Source of the DNA: Syntrophobacterales bacterium
GTDB lineage: Bacteria > Desulfobacterota > Desulfobaccia > Desulfobaccales > 0-14-0-80-60-11
Length of the DNA: 64,000 bases
Direction of reading: 5' to 3'
Assembly: GCA_037388025.1 (NCBI GenBank)
Contig: JARRKO010000001.1
Coordinates: forward strand, 32,473-96,472
Positions 19,197 to 56,305 of the stretch are shown one piece after another (positions within the stretch are counted from its first letter, which is position 1; each line of letters opens with the position of its first letter). Position numbers and translations under genes: made by a program. Under the pieces are notes generated by a model that had not been told where the DNA came from, ran no database searches, and saw only the letters and a list, made by a program, of their open reading frames with translations.

Positions 19197-19276
19197 TTAG
19201 CTGTCAGCCATCAGCTTTCAGCAGTAAGCCGTCAGTGATCACTGGCAAAAACTAACTGCTGTCTGCTGACTGCTAT
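19197..19276. repeat. Heptamer tandem array forming an imperfect dyad (rodA-recR spacer)
   Basis: TTAGCTG TCAGCCA TCAGCTT TCAGCAG TAAGCCG TCAGTGA TCACTGG, then CTAACTGCTGTCTGCTGACTGCTATC in inverted orientation. The central palindrome is CAGTGATCACTG. Confidence 0.85.
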
Positions 19277-19278
19277 CT

Positions 19279-19884
19279 TTACGTTTCCACGCGGTGATGC
19301 AAGGCCTCCAGCAGGGTCTCCCGGTCGGCGTATTTGATGTCGCCACCCATGGGCAGGCCGTAGGCAATACGGCTGGCCTTGATCCCCAGGGGTCTCATTT
19401 CCTGACTGAGGTAGGTGGTGGTGGCCTCCCCCTCCAGGCTGGGGTTCAGGGCCAGGATCACCTCAGTGATGCCTTCGGTGCGCACCCGCTCCAAAAGTTC
19501 CCGGACCCGGATATCCTCCGGACCCACGCCTTCCAGGGGCGAGAGCAGCCCGCCCAGGACATGGTACTGCCCCTGGTACCAGCCCACCTTTTCGATGGCC
19601 AGGAGATCACCGGGGTCGGCCACCACCAACAGCACCCCCGTCTGACGGGCCGGATTGGCGCACAGGGGACACAACTCCTGATCGGCAAACGCAAAACAGC
19701 GGGAGCAGAGACGCACCTTTTCCTTGAGGTTGATCACCGCCTGGGCCAACTCCAGGACCTCTACCTGGGGAGCCCGCAGAAGATATAAGGCCCACCGGGC
19801 GGCGGACTTCTCCCCCACGCCGGGCCACTTACTCAGGGCCGCCACCACCCGCTGCAACGCCTCCGGATACGCCCCTTTCGACAT
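19279..19884 (-). CDS. recR: Recombination protein RecR
   Basis: Start re-picked at MSKGAYPEAL. Zn-finger CSRCFAFADQELCPLC plus a Toprim domain. dnaX-ybaB-recR synteny. Confidence 0.93.
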   Translation of the reverse strand: MSKGAYPEALQRVVAALSKWPGVGEKSAARWALYLLRAPQVEVLELAQAVINLKEKVRLCSRCFAFADQELCPLCANPARQTGVLLVVADPGDLLAIEKVGWYQGQYHVLGGLLSPLEGVGPEDIRVRELLERVRTEGITEVILALNPSLEGEATTTYLSQEMRPLGIKASRIAYGLPMGGDIKYADRETLLEALHHRVET

Positions 19885-19908
19885 GTAGAATCCTTGAGTT
19901 AGATTTTC

Positions 19909-19954
19909 GTGGGAGGAGGGCCAGGGACCTGAGGCCCCTGCCCCCCTCCCCCAC
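19909..19954. repeat. G-rich ~45-nt imperfect palindrome (REP-like family G), copy 1
   Basis: GTGGGAGGAGGGCCAGGGACC-tga-GGCCCCTGCCCCCCTCCCCCAC, between the ybaB stop and the recR start. Confidence 0.8.
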
Positions 19955-19963
19955 AAAACTTCA

Positions 19964-52633: not shown

Positions 52634-52708
52634 GGTGGGCCCACCTGGATTCGAACCAGGGACCGTCCGGTTATGAGCCGGTTGCTCTCACCACTGAGCT
52701 ATGGGCCC
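52634..52708 (-). tRNA. tRNA with CAT anticodon (elongator Met, or Ile2 if lysidinylated)
   Basis: Minus strand reads GGGCCCATAGCTCAGTGGTGAGAGCA-ACCGG-CTCATAA-CCGGA-CGGTC-CCTGGTTCGAATCCAGG-TGGGCCCACC. It lacks the initiator features (no 1:72 mismatch, no GGG/CCC anticodon stem). Confidence 0.85.
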
Positions 52709-52767
52709 TGTAATCTTATAAAATAAATCTTATCCCTCTCAGAAACAAGAGGGAAAACTAAGTTTGT

Positions 52768-54474
52768 TTACGAATCCATAAAACTTTTCAGCCGGGTACT
52801 GCGCGAAGGATGGCGCAGCTTGCGCAGGGCCTTGGCCTCAATCTGGCGGATACGCTCCCGGGTGACATCAAAGTCCCGCCCCACTTCTTCCAGGGTATGG
52901 TCGGTTCTTTCTCCGATTCCGAAGCGCTTGCGCAAGACCCGCTCCTCCCGGGGAGTTAGGGTGGCCAGCATCTTGGCGGTTTGGTCCGCCAGATTCAGGC
53001 TCACCACCGCCTCCATGGGAGTGGAAATCTTTTTGTCCTCAATAAAATCCCCCAAGTGGCTGTCTTCTTCGTCGCCGATGGGGGTTTCTAACGATAAGGG
53101 TTCTTTGGCGATCTTCAAAACTTTGCGCACTTTTTCCAGAGGAAACTCCATTTTTTCGGCAATTTCCTCCGGGGTGGGCTCCCGGCCGATTTCCTGGACC
53201 AGGTAGCGGGAGGTGCGGATGAGCTTGTTGATGGTCTCGATCATGTGCACCGGGATGCGGATGGTGCGGGCCTGATCGGCAATGGCCCGGGTGATGGCCT
53301 GCCGGATCCACCAGGTGGCGTAGGTGCTGAACTTATACCCCCGCTCGTATTCGAACTTTTCCACTGCCTTCATCAACCCGATGTTGCCTTCCTGGATGAG
53401 GTCCAGAAACTGGAGGCCCCGATTGGTGTATTTCTTGGCAATGGAGACCACCAGGCGCAGATTGGCCTCCACTAACTCTCGTTTGGCTTTCTCGGCCTGG
53501 TATTCTCCTTTACGGATGCGCTCCAGCACCCTCAGGGTGCGGTAGGGGGTGAGACCGAGTTCCTGCTCCACCCGCTTCAGGCGCTTTTCTTCTTGCCCCC
53601 AGGCCTCTTCCAACTCTTTAAGACGGGCATGGGTGAGGCCGTTGGGCGCAAGGATAGGGAGGCCTTTCCGTAAATCCCGCAGGAGAGCCCGAAACTTTTT
53701 AGCCGATAAACCCGTCTCCCGGAGGACCCCCTGGAGCTTTTGCTGACAATCTCGAATGGTGCGATAATGGCGCAAGAGCTGGCTCAGAAGGTTTTCCAGA
53801 TGATGAGATTCCAGGCGGATGTTTATCAAACAGTCCACCAGGCGACTGCGGGTCGCGGCTAGCTTGTGCTCCAGCTGACTTTTGGCCTCAGAATTACCTT
53901 TGGTGGTGGCCAACTCTTTTCTAATTTCCCGCAGGCGTTCTTCCTGGGACCTGAGCTTCTGGACCAGCTTGTGAAACTTGGATTTCTGGGAGGACTGGTC
54001 CAGATCCGGGTCCTTGTCCCCGAAATTATCCAGAGAGGTGTCGGGCGCCAGCTTTTCTTGCTCCAACCGGTGCACCAAAGCCAAGATCTCCTGGACCGCC
54101 CAGGGCACCTCCAGGATCGCCTGCAACACCTCATTTTCCCCCTCCTCGATGCGCTTGGCAATCTCCACCTCCCCTTCCCGGGTGAGGAGGGAAACCATGC
54201 CCATCTCCTTGAGGTACAGGCGCACGGGGTCATCCAGCTTGACCGCGGACTCGGGCTCCAGCGACAGATCAACGTCCCCCTCTTCCATATTCAGATTGTG
54301 GGTGACTTCCCCCGACGGCAGGGGCAAGTCGTCAAGGATGAGGACATCTTTGGCCGGTTCATTCAGGAAATTGTCGGATGCCAGGGATTCACTAAACTCT
54401 TCTACCGTCATGATGGCATCATCATCATCCATTGGCATAATACTGGAAAAGCCATCCATACCCCGTTTACTCAT
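52768..54474 (-). CDS. rpoD: RNA polymerase primary sigma factor
   Basis: 568-aa ORF with [17 protein letters not shown] and a region 4.2 HTH (TLEEVG...TRERIRQIE). Confidence 0.97.
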
Positions 54475-56240
54475 CCATTTTCTCCTCTCGTGGTAGGGGG
54501 CGTTTTCAACGCCTCAAGTTGCCAATCAATTTCCTGTTTTTGGGCTAAAAGAGTTTGACTCTCGGGGTCCCGGGCCAGCTTTTCCTTCAAACCTCGCTGG
54601 AGCTGTTGCAAGTGCCGCCGCCGAAAAGCCCGCCGCCAATCATCCGCTACTAAATCAGGGGGGACTTGGGCAAATTCCCCCTCTCCCAGGACCAGGGCGC
54701 AAATCTCTTGTTTCCGGTTTTCCTCCTCCAAGTGGTCCAAAAGGTAACTAACATCCAAGGTCTGATGTTGGGCACAGTACGTAGCGATGAGGCGCAGTAG
54801 TTCCTGCAGGTCGGGGTCTTCCATCTCCTCGGCCCACTCCGCCAGCTCTTCCGCGGGCACTGCCCCCGGGTGGTTCAGGACCCAGCGCAGCAGTCCTTTC
54901 TCCAAATTGATGGCGACTCCCCGTCCCCCGTCCCGTCCCTTTTGGAAGGCCGGAGCCGTCTGGGTGAGGCTCAGGCGCAGGTCCGTTTCCGCCACGCTGA
55001 GGCGTTCGGCGGCGTACTTGAGCCACAAGCCCTGTTCCACCGGGTCCTGCAGGGCCTGAAAATAAGGCCGCAGTTCCTCTGTCACCTTGACCCGGCCTTC
55101 GATGGACAGGCCATGGGCTGCCACCAGGCTGTCCAATAGAAAAGCCAACCAGGGTTGGGCCGCGTCCCAGGGGGAGGCAAAGAGGTCCGGTCCGTGTGCC
55201 TGGACATAGTTGTCCGGGTCCATACCCGCGGGCAGGGGAATGACCCTCACCGGCAAGCCTTCCTGGCCGAACAGGGGGAAGGCCCGACACATGGCCCGGG
55301 ATCCCGCCGGGTCCCCATCGAAGACCAGCACCACTCGGGACACCAGACTTTTCAGCAGCCGCACCTGTTCCCGGGTGAGGGCCGTGCCTAGGGTAGCCAC
55401 CACGGGCATAACACCGTGCACCCGCAAAGCCAGCAGATCGAGGTAGCCCTCCACCACCAGGGCCAGGTCCTGCTTTCTGATGGCTTCCCGGCCCTGAGGC
55501 AAGCCATAGAGTAAGCGGCCCTTGGAATAGAGCGGACTTTCGGGGGAATTGAGATATTTGGGTTCCCCCTCGCCGACGATGCGGCCCCCGAAGGCTACCA
55601 CCCGTTCCTGCCGATCGAAGATGGGAAAAATGACCCGGTCCCGGAAACGGTCGTAGTAACCGCCCGAGGCCCGGGGCAGCAGCAGTCCCACTTCCGCGGC
55701 CGCATCCGGGGATAGGCCCCGGCTTTGGAGGTGCCGCCGCAGGCCGTTCCATTCCGGGGGCGCGTAGCCCAGGCCATAGGTCTGGATGACTTCGGGGGTG
55801 AGACCCCGGTTGGCCAGATAGTTCCGGGCCGGCTGGCCGGCTTTGCCCTCCAGGGTGGCCTGATAAAACGCGAGGGCCTCCCTATGCAGGTCATAAAAAA
55901 CCTGGCGTTTCTTGGCCCGGCGGGACTCTTCGGGGCCCAAATCCCTTAAGGCCAGGGTGATGCCATACCGCCGGGCCAGCTCCAGGGCCGCCTCGGGAAA
56001 GGACAGGCGGTGGTGTTGCATGACAAAAGAGATGACGTTGCCCCCGGCGCCACAGCCGAAGCAGTAGAAAATGCCCTTGTCCGGGGACACGGTGAACGAG
56101 GGCTTGGTGTCGGCGTGGAAGGGGCAGAGGCCCAGGAGGTTCTTGCCCCGGCGCTCCAGCTTGACGTATTGCCCCACCACCTCTTCGATGGAGGCGGCCT
56201 CTCTGATCTCCAGAAGCTTGTCTTCCGGGATGTAGGCCAT
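54471..56240 (-). CDS. dnaG: DNA primase
   Basis: 589-aa ORF. Zn-finger [30 protein letters not shown] and a Toprim domain. It overlaps rpoD by 4 nt. Confidence 0.96.
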
Positions 56241-56256
56241 ATCACTAAGTAGTGGT

Positions 56257-56305
56257 CAGCAGTTAGCAGTCAGCAGTTAGTTTTGAGTTTTTAGTTTCGA
56301 GTTAT
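56257..56305. repeat. Hybrid heptamer array (TCAGCAG TTAGCAG TCAGCAG | TTAGTTT TGAGTTT TTAGTTT CGAGTTA)
   Basis: The two unit types seen separately at the tRNA-Ser locus are joined here in one continuous 7-nt phase. Confidence 0.9.

Follow-up and report, generated by a model that had tools for sequence, protein, structure and literature searches.

The 64,000-nt stretch of DNA analysed here (the window), part of a Desulfobaccales metagenome-assembled genome (MAG), carries in the spacers between its genes a family of short tandem arrays with a period of 7 nt, which are real and far above chance. The arrays, of 3–7 copies each in the window, are well supported as heptanucleotide simple sequence repeats (SSRs) of the kind of the cyanobacterial short tandemly repeated repetitive (STRR) sequences and of two other repeats, TAACTGA in Beggiatoaceae and GGGAATC in Xanthomonas. 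The explanation favoured here, with a probability of about 0.5, is that they are slippage-born intercistronic RNA elements, in which leaders free of a Shine-Dalgarno (SD) sequence can be masked by an upstream arm.

Tandem Repeats Finder (TRF), applied to the window with a score of at least 30, returned 14 period-7 arrays, and it also reported periods of 14 and 21. Thirteen of the 14 fall in the 9.1% of the window (5,807 nt, or 5,442 nt once the RNase P RNA is added to the map) that is non-coding on a gene map built from independent gene calls on near-identical public contigs, tRNAs and the RNase P RNA. In 200 dinucleotide-preserving shuffles the spacers held on average 0.14 period-7 arrays and at most 2, and a stricter autocorrelation (lag) scan of the window found 7 arrays at lag 7 in the spacers, none at lags 4–6 and 8–12 there, and none at lag 7 in coding DNA. 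A sequence-only reading of this DNA had claimed that phased heptamer arrays fill its spacers and are all intergenic; ten of its eleven intervals are recovered by TRF at the same threshold, and the excess of 13 spacer arrays over the shuffled mean, together with the empty lag-7 scan of coding DNA, bears the claim out. Some of the intervals have to be redrawn. Heptamers are indeed present at 19197–19276 and 33434–33530, but each is an inverted pair rather than one array (in the first, TRF scores 19256–19278 only); 56257–56305 keeps the period of 7 and consists of two adjacent arrays with different units; and 22199–22233 is a degenerate array lying under the TRF threshold, in which 28 of 35 bases (about 80%) agree with the consensus TTTAAGC. 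The proposed common core, TNAGNNN in the same phase throughout, holds in part, AGT/ACT being the better description: the shared core is AGT or ACT, often as TCAGT/ACTGA, and one of the two trinucleotides lies inside the unit of 33 of the 74 arrays in a wider sample. Unit sequences in the window are many, and most come from a TCAGT/ACTGA and GAGTTTY/RAAACTC repertoire. Confinement to non-coding DNA would follow from the units themselves: their length of 7 is not divisible by 3, and most of them contain stop codons, so that an array would block all three reading frames.

The arrays are clumped. None occurs at 1–19000 of the window or in the 10 kb to its left (locus L100, 10600–20651), which leaves about 29 kb to the left of position 19197 free of them. 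Array-bearing spacers lie between co-directional genes in seven cases and between convergent genes in two, as the sequence-only reading had said of most of them. In the window they associate with low-abundance DNA replication and repair genes (recR, dnaX, holA, dnaG, mutS2), not with highly expressed operons; heptamer repeats have been reported upstream of recF and recO in Nostoc.

Exact-protein look-up also recovered the locus from two NCBI MAGs (GCA_037388145.1 and GCA_037387945.1), from two JGI metagenomes (3300057030 and 3300057003) and from two Logan assemblies of the Sequence Read Archive (SRA). The window agrees with these six independent assemblies at 99.8–99.98% identity, and each array is found in every assembly that spans its position (2 to 6 assemblies per array), which meets the earlier concern that the repeats might vanish from other assemblies. 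That they are an artefact of short-read metagenome assembly has a negligible probability, since as many as six contigs, assembled independently by different pipelines from different samples, carry them in identical form, and the repeat class is seen in many unrelated genomes; what speaks for it is that the window has local defects elsewhere, segments of 105–170 nt being absent from it at five sites. These segments, present in JGI contig Ga0568874_0000039, are missing at 3466/3467, 18162/18163, 20354, 25543/25544 and 39635, and at the same five places GCA_037388145.1 has 6-nt remnants, a run of N or a differing deletion of its own. The lengths of the gaps are not divisible by 3, the genes that they truncate are dnaX (by a 170-nt deletion), rodA at its 3′ end and ugd at its 5′ end, and they have the look of faulty assembly or scaffolding, not of biology.

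The sole difference among assemblies in the arrays themselves concerns 29484–29507, which is one 7-nt unit shorter (29501–29507 deleted) in two JGI contigs (L084 and L085) otherwise about 99.8–99.9% identical to the window along this stretch. Such a one-unit length difference is a signature of slipped-strand mispairing; copy number, which the sequence-only reading had singled out for comparison between strains, shifts here by exactly one unit, in the whole 7-nt steps between near-identical populations that slippage would produce. The same indel also counts for the main rival explanation, possible although rather less than an even bet, by which the arrays are selfish or neutral, functionless slippage products of a mutational bias of the replisome, along the lines of Mrazek's idea of polymerase contact. 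The clumped, patchy distribution also speaks for this neutral origin. Against it, period 7 alone is enriched, though periods of 4, 5 and 8 would be equally tolerable in non-coding DNA.

What slippage alone explains less readily is the way in which the arrays fit the gene ends. The genes around them are nearly all on the minus strand, and the arrays are therefore read in minus-strand sense. Eight arrays form four inverted pairs, in four spacers, confirming the earlier impression of many inverted pairs; the paired arms are complementary and are predicted to form hairpins of 20–30 bp that span the spacer, with z-scores from −3.2 to −7.7. Between recR and rodA, the 5′ arm (19256..19278, sense GCAGTCA GCAGACA GCAG) directly follows the recR stop (19279) and the 3′ arm (19197..19238, sense TCACTGA CGGCTTA CTGCTGA AAGCTGA TGGCTGA CAGCTAA) ends 2 nt upstream of the rodA ATG; the 5′ arm was recognised by TRF, sequence and fold, and the predicted RNA hairpin has a ΔG of −31.3 kcal/mol (z −3.2). 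Between tRNA-Ser(GGA) and dnaX, where both arms are seen by TRF and in the fold, units of the GAGTTTT type (21809..21840) begin directly after the tRNA 3′ end and six of the AAAACTC/GAAACTC type (21718..21759) end 3 nt before the dnaX ATG, with a predicted ΔG of −32 kcal/mol (z −6.3). The strongest predicted fold (−64.6 kcal/mol, z −7.65) lies between tRNA-Ser(CGA) and tRNA-Ser(GGA): a stem of about 30 bp, with a 91-nt AT-rich loop, joins CAGTCAG-type units (22067..22101; TRF, fold), which begin 7 nt past the 3′ end of tRNA-Ser(CGA) and are preceded by a TTTTGAG unit, to CTGACTG/CTAACTG units (21941..21975; fold) that stop about 8 nt short of the 5′ end of tRNA-Ser(GGA). In the fourth pair (TRF, fold), CAGTAAT-type units downstream of holA (33494..33530) face ACTGATC-type units (33434..33475) upstream of a conserved −10-like box of proS, with a predicted ΔG of −34.1 kcal/mol (z −4.4). 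An rRNA-like processing stem formed by the arrays that flank tRNA-Ser(GGA) was ruled out, these two arrays not being complementary.

The remaining arrays are single, all but one of them scored by TRF, and RNA folding gives single arrays no significant z-score. In the 42-nt lptE–holA spacer, the array at 34594..34628 on the minus strand (sense ACTGACC ACTGATC ACTGGTC ACTAATT) fills the interval and ends 5 nt upstream of the holA ATG, and upstream of dnaG two abutting arrays (56257..56305, minus strand; sense AAAACTC/GAAACTA ×4, then ACTGCTG/ACTGCTA ×3) end 16 nt before the ATG. The convergent spacers hold CAGTAGT ×3.4 (29484..29507, minus strand), 8 nt past the spoT stop and facing rpmB, and AGTTCAA ×4.4 (41964..41998, plus strand) between tyrS and ddl. 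The degenerate array below the TRF threshold (22199..22233, minus strand; sense GCTTAAG type) lies directly upstream of tRNA-Ser(CGA). Taken over the window, 5′ arms begin 0–7 nt after the recR stop or tRNA 3′ ends, and the gap between a 3′ arm or single array and the ATG that it precedes is 2 nt at rodA, 3 nt at dnaX, 5 nt at holA and 16 nt at dnaG. Read along the sense strand of the neighbouring genes, the array behind an upstream gene is C-poor and contains AGT, and the one ahead of the next start is G-poor, contains ACT and has almost no start codons.

Several familiar kinds of element were considered for these sequences. An Rfam search of the window found no known RNA family overlapping any array, a consensus promoter scan of the array-bearing spacers gave nothing informative, and a consensus terminator scan of the same spacers gave no hit in the arrays save one weak one at 34619–34600, the canonical rpmB terminator at 29371–29390 being separate from them. 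The arrays lack the short GC-rich stem and U tract of an intrinsic terminator, and CRISPR was ruled out, the units being 7 nt long and contiguous as opposed to repeats of about 23–50 nt with unique spacers. The sequence-only reading was thus right, on the contiguity of the units, the gene map and the terminator scan, to set aside CRISPR, coding sequence and canonical terminators.

The context of the downstream starts adds to the picture. An SD sequence is absent from all five array-preceded genes and present at 35 of the 59 other starts listed in the window, a contrast whose p of about 0.02 is a rough estimate rather than a computed test and which rests on only 4 to 5 genes. The genes rodA, dnaX, holA and dnaG, each preceded by an ACTG- or ACTC-sense array, have no SD; the highly expressed genes of the window (the atp operon, dnaK, grpE, rpsU) have a strong SD and no arrays. 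At proS, a conserved TATGGTAAAAT box resembling an extended −10 element ends about 15 nt before the ATG in five species (window 33381–33425; L090, L092, L094, L096), and the remainder of the holA–proS spacer is unrelated among them; proS is probably transcribed from a promoter of its own, with a very short leader that lacks an SD.

The favoured proposal is that the arrays act in the transcript. The A/C/U-rich 3′ array would serve as an intrinsically unstructured leader that stands in for the SD before the weakly expressed rodA, dnaX, holA and dnaG, and the upstream G/U-rich arm could mask it. Translation or processing of the downstream gene would then hinge on the hairpin being opened, perhaps by a ribosome terminating at the adjacent stop codon, or cleaved, perhaps by RNase III or RNase E, and slippage would tune the length of the arms. 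A role at this level is favoured because single arrays are oriented to the sense strand of the flanking gene, because the start-proximal array is G-poor, devoid of start codons and not self-folding, because it takes the place of the SD before weakly expressed genes, and because a C-poor complementary arm, if there is one, abuts the upstream stop, where a ribosome or RNase could open the hairpin. Such an RNA-level model accounts for the polarity, the tight fit to gene ends and the SD depletion. The neutral alternative can also reach some of these features, since complementarity of the arms may be kept by template switching in quasi-palindromes, and the polarity may be a residue of purifying selection against start codons, SD-like G-rich runs and structure before starts and, behind stops, against C-rich sequence that loads Rho; the depletion of start codons on the ACT strand is what filtering by selection would yield by itself. 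It has more difficulty with the closeness of the arrays to stops and starts (a median of 21 nt) and with their taking the place of the SD before essential genes.

Comparison with relatives shows both recurrence and rapid change. Loci surrounding holA were examined in Desulfobaccales at 90, 82, 76, 76, 70 and 65% HolA identity, where the order leuS–lptE–holA–proS–spoT, with rpmB convergent, is kept except in L097 (70%) and L098 (65%), in which it ends after holA. Period-7 arrays occur in five of the six relative loci, with other units, for example ACTTTGA, GAATACC, GAAACCT, AAGCTGA and TAGCTTA. The same spacers (lptE–holA, spoT/rpmB, ddl/tyrS) carry arrays in several species, sometimes with other units: in the lptE–holA spacer the window has ACTGAYC, L092 has ACTTTGA and L098 has AAGCTGA, and L094 and L096, where this spacer measures only 2–5 nt, have no array in it. 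The unit family of the tyrS/ddl array recurs at the orthologous site in L092, and that of the degenerate array upstream of tRNA-Ser(CGA) is found in L092 and L096 (AGCTTAA, TAGCTTA). In the spoT/rpmB spacer, four species have CAGT-type units after the spoT stop and CTGACTG-type units beside the rpmB stop, and in L094 (z −4.1) and L090 (z −5.3) these outer arms are predicted to pair over its full length. Arrays recur at the same kinds of site, yet they are born, remodelled and lost quickly. In the nearest other species, at 90% HolA identity, a gene for a 273-aa TIR-domain protein (L090 4059–4880, L091 1380–2201) is inserted between lptE and holA, at the site of the window's array.

A number of observations weigh against the RNA-level model. 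Close relatives gain and lose arrays, which makes a strong constraint on particular sites unlikely: at spoT/rpmB the arms show erosion both in the window (z 0.18) and in L092 (z −1.5) and are absent from L096, the holA–proS arrays are found in the window only among the relatives compared, and 21 kb of L097, a locus like that of Desulfobacca acetoxidans, are free of arrays. Neither this fast turnover between species nor the 7-nt period itself is accounted for by the model. G·U wobble pairing gives no asymmetry between sense and antisense folds, the sense being more stable in 7 spacers and the antisense in 6, and so does not favour selection on the sense RNA; two of the hairpins follow tRNA genes and two arrays lie between convergent genes, which is a misfit to translational coupling; transcription of the arrays is assumed from the operon-like gene order; and the SD sample, of 4 to 5 genes, is small. 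The quick turnover of units, their presence or absence among relatives and the lack of a G·U strand asymmetry count in favour of neutral slippage products, whereas the reoccupation of orthologous spacers by different units counts against them.

The orientation rule extends well beyond the Desulfobaccales. When arrays are classed by whether AGT or ACT lies on the top strand, all four pairs of the window have the AGT arm 5′ and the ACT arm 3′. As a background, 80 loci among the matches listed from a scan with DnaX were taken from diverse bacteria at 40–50% identity (1.17 Mb). The mean density in them is 0.64 period-7 arrays per 10 kb, most of it due to a small number of lineages (a groundwater deltaproteobacterial MAG, Nitrospira/Nitrospiraceae, a Clostridiales MAG, Thermoguttaceae and Oscillospiraceae) that share the window's architecture of inverted pairs with AGT 5′ and ACT 3′ (L001, L019, L034, L042, L048, L070, L074). 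Over the window, its relatives and the background loci, this polarity is found in 13 of 13 pairs with a detectable partner, in at least eight lineages. Being symmetric between strands, it does not come from the chosen strand or from replication direction alone.

A metagenome scan with a query of five AGT trinucleotides at 7-nt spacing returned at least 120 loci (L101–L220). In the 120 listed there are 276 period-7 arrays with 167 distinct canonical units, at a GC content of 21 to 70%, and of the adjacent arrays of opposite sign 38 run from AGT to ACT and 2 the other way round (p = 1.5e-9). By crude calls of open reading frames (ORFs) in these loci, arrays are nearer to an ORF on the 5′ side of their AGT strand in 75 cases against 38, with a median array–ORF distance of 21 nt on that side and 105 nt on the 3′ side; AGT-sense arrays outnumber ACT-sense arrays after stop codons (41 vs 14), and ACT-sense outnumber AGT-sense arrays before start codons (24 vs 9). 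The ACT strand contains 10–12% G and the AGT strand 10–12% C, and the ACT strand is without ATG, GTG or TTG in about 74% of arrays. In a small unbiased set, again with crude ORF calls, only a trend is seen (C>G before starts 15 vs 6, p = 0.08). Some 5′ arms of the background and metagenome loci are SD-like (GGAG, GAGG), with anti-SD-like (CUCC) 3′ partners. The wealth of 167 canonical units among the 276 arrays is a further point for the neutral explanation.

Of what the analysis turned up along the way, this general AGT/ACT polarity, common to many units and phyla, is the most interesting; it was not found stated in the published work consulted, in which the orientation rule concerns single unit types (GGGAATC, TAACTGA). 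It invites a bolder and improbable hypothesis, in which the window would be one instance of a cross-phylum, gene-oriented ‘heptamer zipper’, a slippage-tunable post-transcriptional switch of genomes with 21–70% GC. A C-poor AGU-type array by the end of the upstream gene would pair with a G-poor ACU-type array by the downstream start and act by translational coupling, attenuation or controlled processing, and a conserved single-strand binding protein whose footprint is 7 nt, for instance an OB fold of the cold-shock or S1 type, might read it; if this were true, the 7-nt period would be functional rather than mutational.

The symmetry of the pairs can also be read at the level of DNA. By this explanation, modelled on repetitive extragenic palindromes (REPs) and bacterial interspersed mosaic elements (BIMEs) with gyrase and IHF, the arrays would be iterated sites for a DNA-binding or nucleoid protein, or cruciforms, that affect supercoiling, replication or promoter access. 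Strand-symmetric polarity, with convergent AGT ‘arrows’, is as for inverted protein-binding sites, three units make 21 bp or two helical turns, in keeping with the TRF periods of 14 and 21, and the absence of a sense/antisense folding asymmetry is also in its favour, as is the finding that heptamers of Nostoc modulate LexA and NtcA at the recO promoter (bioRxiv 10.1101/2022.06.06.494920). It is nevertheless unlikely: the units are far too diverse for one sequence-specific protein, single arrays are oriented by the sense strand of the flanking gene (as also in PMC4679880), arrays avoid the divergent promoter regions of the window, and any binding protein is hypothetical.

The succession of array, core and inverted array, with ends of fixed orientation, recalls small mobile elements, and separate REP-like GTAG palindromes occur in the same spacers. 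Remnants of foldback elements or MITEs (miniature inverted-repeat transposable elements) with heptamer terminal inverted repeats, or footprints of insertion and excision, are nonetheless a very improbable source of the arrays. The cores of the four pairs show no mutual similarity, many arrays are single, there is no transposase nearby, the same orthologous spacers are occupied in different species by locally differing units, and no target-site duplications were noticed at the array borders that were read, no systematic search having been made; MITE or foldback identity was rejected on the unrelated cores and the differing units of orthologous spacers.

The REP-like elements form a repeat family of their own. 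They have a GTAG(G) head and, behind it, a GC-rich palindrome (TGTAGGGTGGGCACCGCCCACC), and adjoin heptamer arrays: a predicted hairpin at 56306..56327 on the minus strand, with a GTAG head and a GTGGGC-ACC-GCCCAC palindrome, adjoins the dnaG array, and a second copy lies at 22250–22271. An exact 15-mer occurs twice in the window, which has three matches within two mismatches against 0.37 expected. Similar elements are found in spacers of the relatives (L092 9820–9850, L096 about 11095–11150, L098 about 9900–9925), which suggests a RAYT-type REP family in Desulfobaccales.

The host is a Desulfobaccales (Thermodesulfobacteriota) MAG, from an uncultured bacterium related to sulfate reducers, and not a cyanobacterium. 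HolA relatives are graded from 91% down to 63% identity, and the named ones are Desulfobaccales, Desulfobacca acetoxidans or Thermodesulfobacteriota; atpA, atpG, atpD and atpC are adjacent to one another in the window, and the earlier judgement that the gene content is non-cyanobacterial agrees with both. The gene content of the window is of a housekeeping kind (dnaK, glmS/U, the atp operon, rodA, recR, dnaX, spoT, proS, holA, leuS, rpoD, dnaG, mutS2). A bacterial RNase P RNA of class A at 49576–49940 on the minus strand (322 bits) fills the apparent long spacer between rnhA and a glycosyltransferase gene. Tandem repeats within coding sequence at 3615–3705 (period 6, and period 21 ×3) encode the Gly/Ala/Pro-rich C-terminal tail of DnaK and are ordinary.

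The analysis extends the class of heptamer arrays to the Desulfobaccales, and one compact region displays what any explanation must cover: diversity of units, confinement to spacers, abutment on gene ends, hairpin pairs and polarity. The polarity, the G-poor, start-free proximal arm and the absent downstream SD give concrete hypotheses open to reporter assays. Even if the arrays are neutral, they remain a standard repeat class for annotators and provide strain-level length markers.

Among known systems, REPs are imperfect palindromes of 20–40 nt with a GTAG head, mobilised by RAYT transposases. Like REPs and BIMEs, the heptamer arrays are extragenic, lie in operon spacers, form predicted hairpins and often come as inverted pairs, and a functional analogy may be drawn to protection of mRNA 3′ ends and differential expression of cistrons. 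Unlike REPs, they are tandem heptamers without the GTAG head, which in the window belongs to the separate elements at 22250–22271 and 56306–56327.

The closest analogy offered by the sequence-only reading, that with the cyanobacterial STRR sequences, is apt, these being tandem intergenic heptanucleotides. Mazel and colleagues are said to have described them in 1990 as tandem heptanucleotides in many intergenic copies, and heptamer repeats reportedly form variable but structured nif intergenic regions (Jackman and Mulligan, 1995). The canonical units are CCCCAGT, TTGGTCA and CAACAGT, of which CCCCAGT and CAACAGT contain AGT, as do units in the window. Here, unlike there, the host is no cyanobacterium and the arrays are short, and tandem CCCCAGT, TTGGTCA or CAACAGT occurs on neither strand of the window. 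STRR denotes the three heptanucleotides of Calothrix PCC 7601, as cited in PMC4692102; heptamer repeats close to recF and recO in Nostoc have an effect on promoter use and, possibly, on translation (bioRxiv 10.1101/2022.06.06.494920).

The statement that no annotated feature type explains the arrays does not stand, as heptamer SSRs have been described from the intergenic DNA of bacteria other than cyanobacteria (PMC4679880, PMC4692102, and Mrazek 2007 cited there). According to those two papers' citations of Mrazek 2007, heptanucleotide SSRs are over-represented across bacteria, within a class of long SSRs with head-to-tail units of 5–11 nt that are longer and commoner than chance, and the length of 7 nt may reflect the contact of polymerase with DNA. 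The window's arrays agree with this general class in their excess over shuffled spacers (13 intergenic arrays vs a mean of 0.14) and in the whole-unit length polymorphism at 29484–29507, and differ from its three named sub-families in unit sequence.

The GGGAATC and GGGGA(C/T)T repeats of Xanthomonas and Nostoc are 89–93% intergenic and lie mostly between co-directional ORFs (Rehm et al. 2015, PMC4692102). In Xanthomonas the repeats are often paired as inverted repeats. The GGGAATC repeats occupy the same spacers in related species with variation in length and sequence, and the strand rich in G is coding when they lie directly downstream of an ORF and non-coding when they lie directly upstream (PMC4692102), an orientation rule that the window's arrays follow towards their flanking ORFs. 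GGGAATC repeats have G-tracts, G-quadruplexes and a preferred copy number of four (PMC4692102); the window's units are without GGG, tandem GGGAATC or GGGGATT is absent from the window, and a G-quadruplex was ruled out for its arrays, which lack G-tracts.

The TAACTGA repeats, known from marine Beggiatoaceae and some Cyanobacteria and Bacteroidetes (MacGregor 2015, PMC4679880), resemble the arrays of the window in several respects: they are intergenic tandem heptamers, there of 2–6 copies, they lie only a few nucleotides from start codons and are turned ‘forward’, with ACTGA in the sense strand, canonical SDs are rare in the spacers that bear them, and they precede essential genes of no particular functional class (PMC4679880). 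Tandem TAACTGA itself does not occur in the window, but several units are one mismatch away from it (TAACTGC, TCACTGA, TTACTGA). The phylum differs, Thermodesulfobacteriota here, and BOGUAY has essentially one unit and a single inverted pair, as against many units and four inverted pairs in the window. The kind of element is thus already known; what is new is the Desulfobaccales as host order and the unusually mixed repertoire of units.

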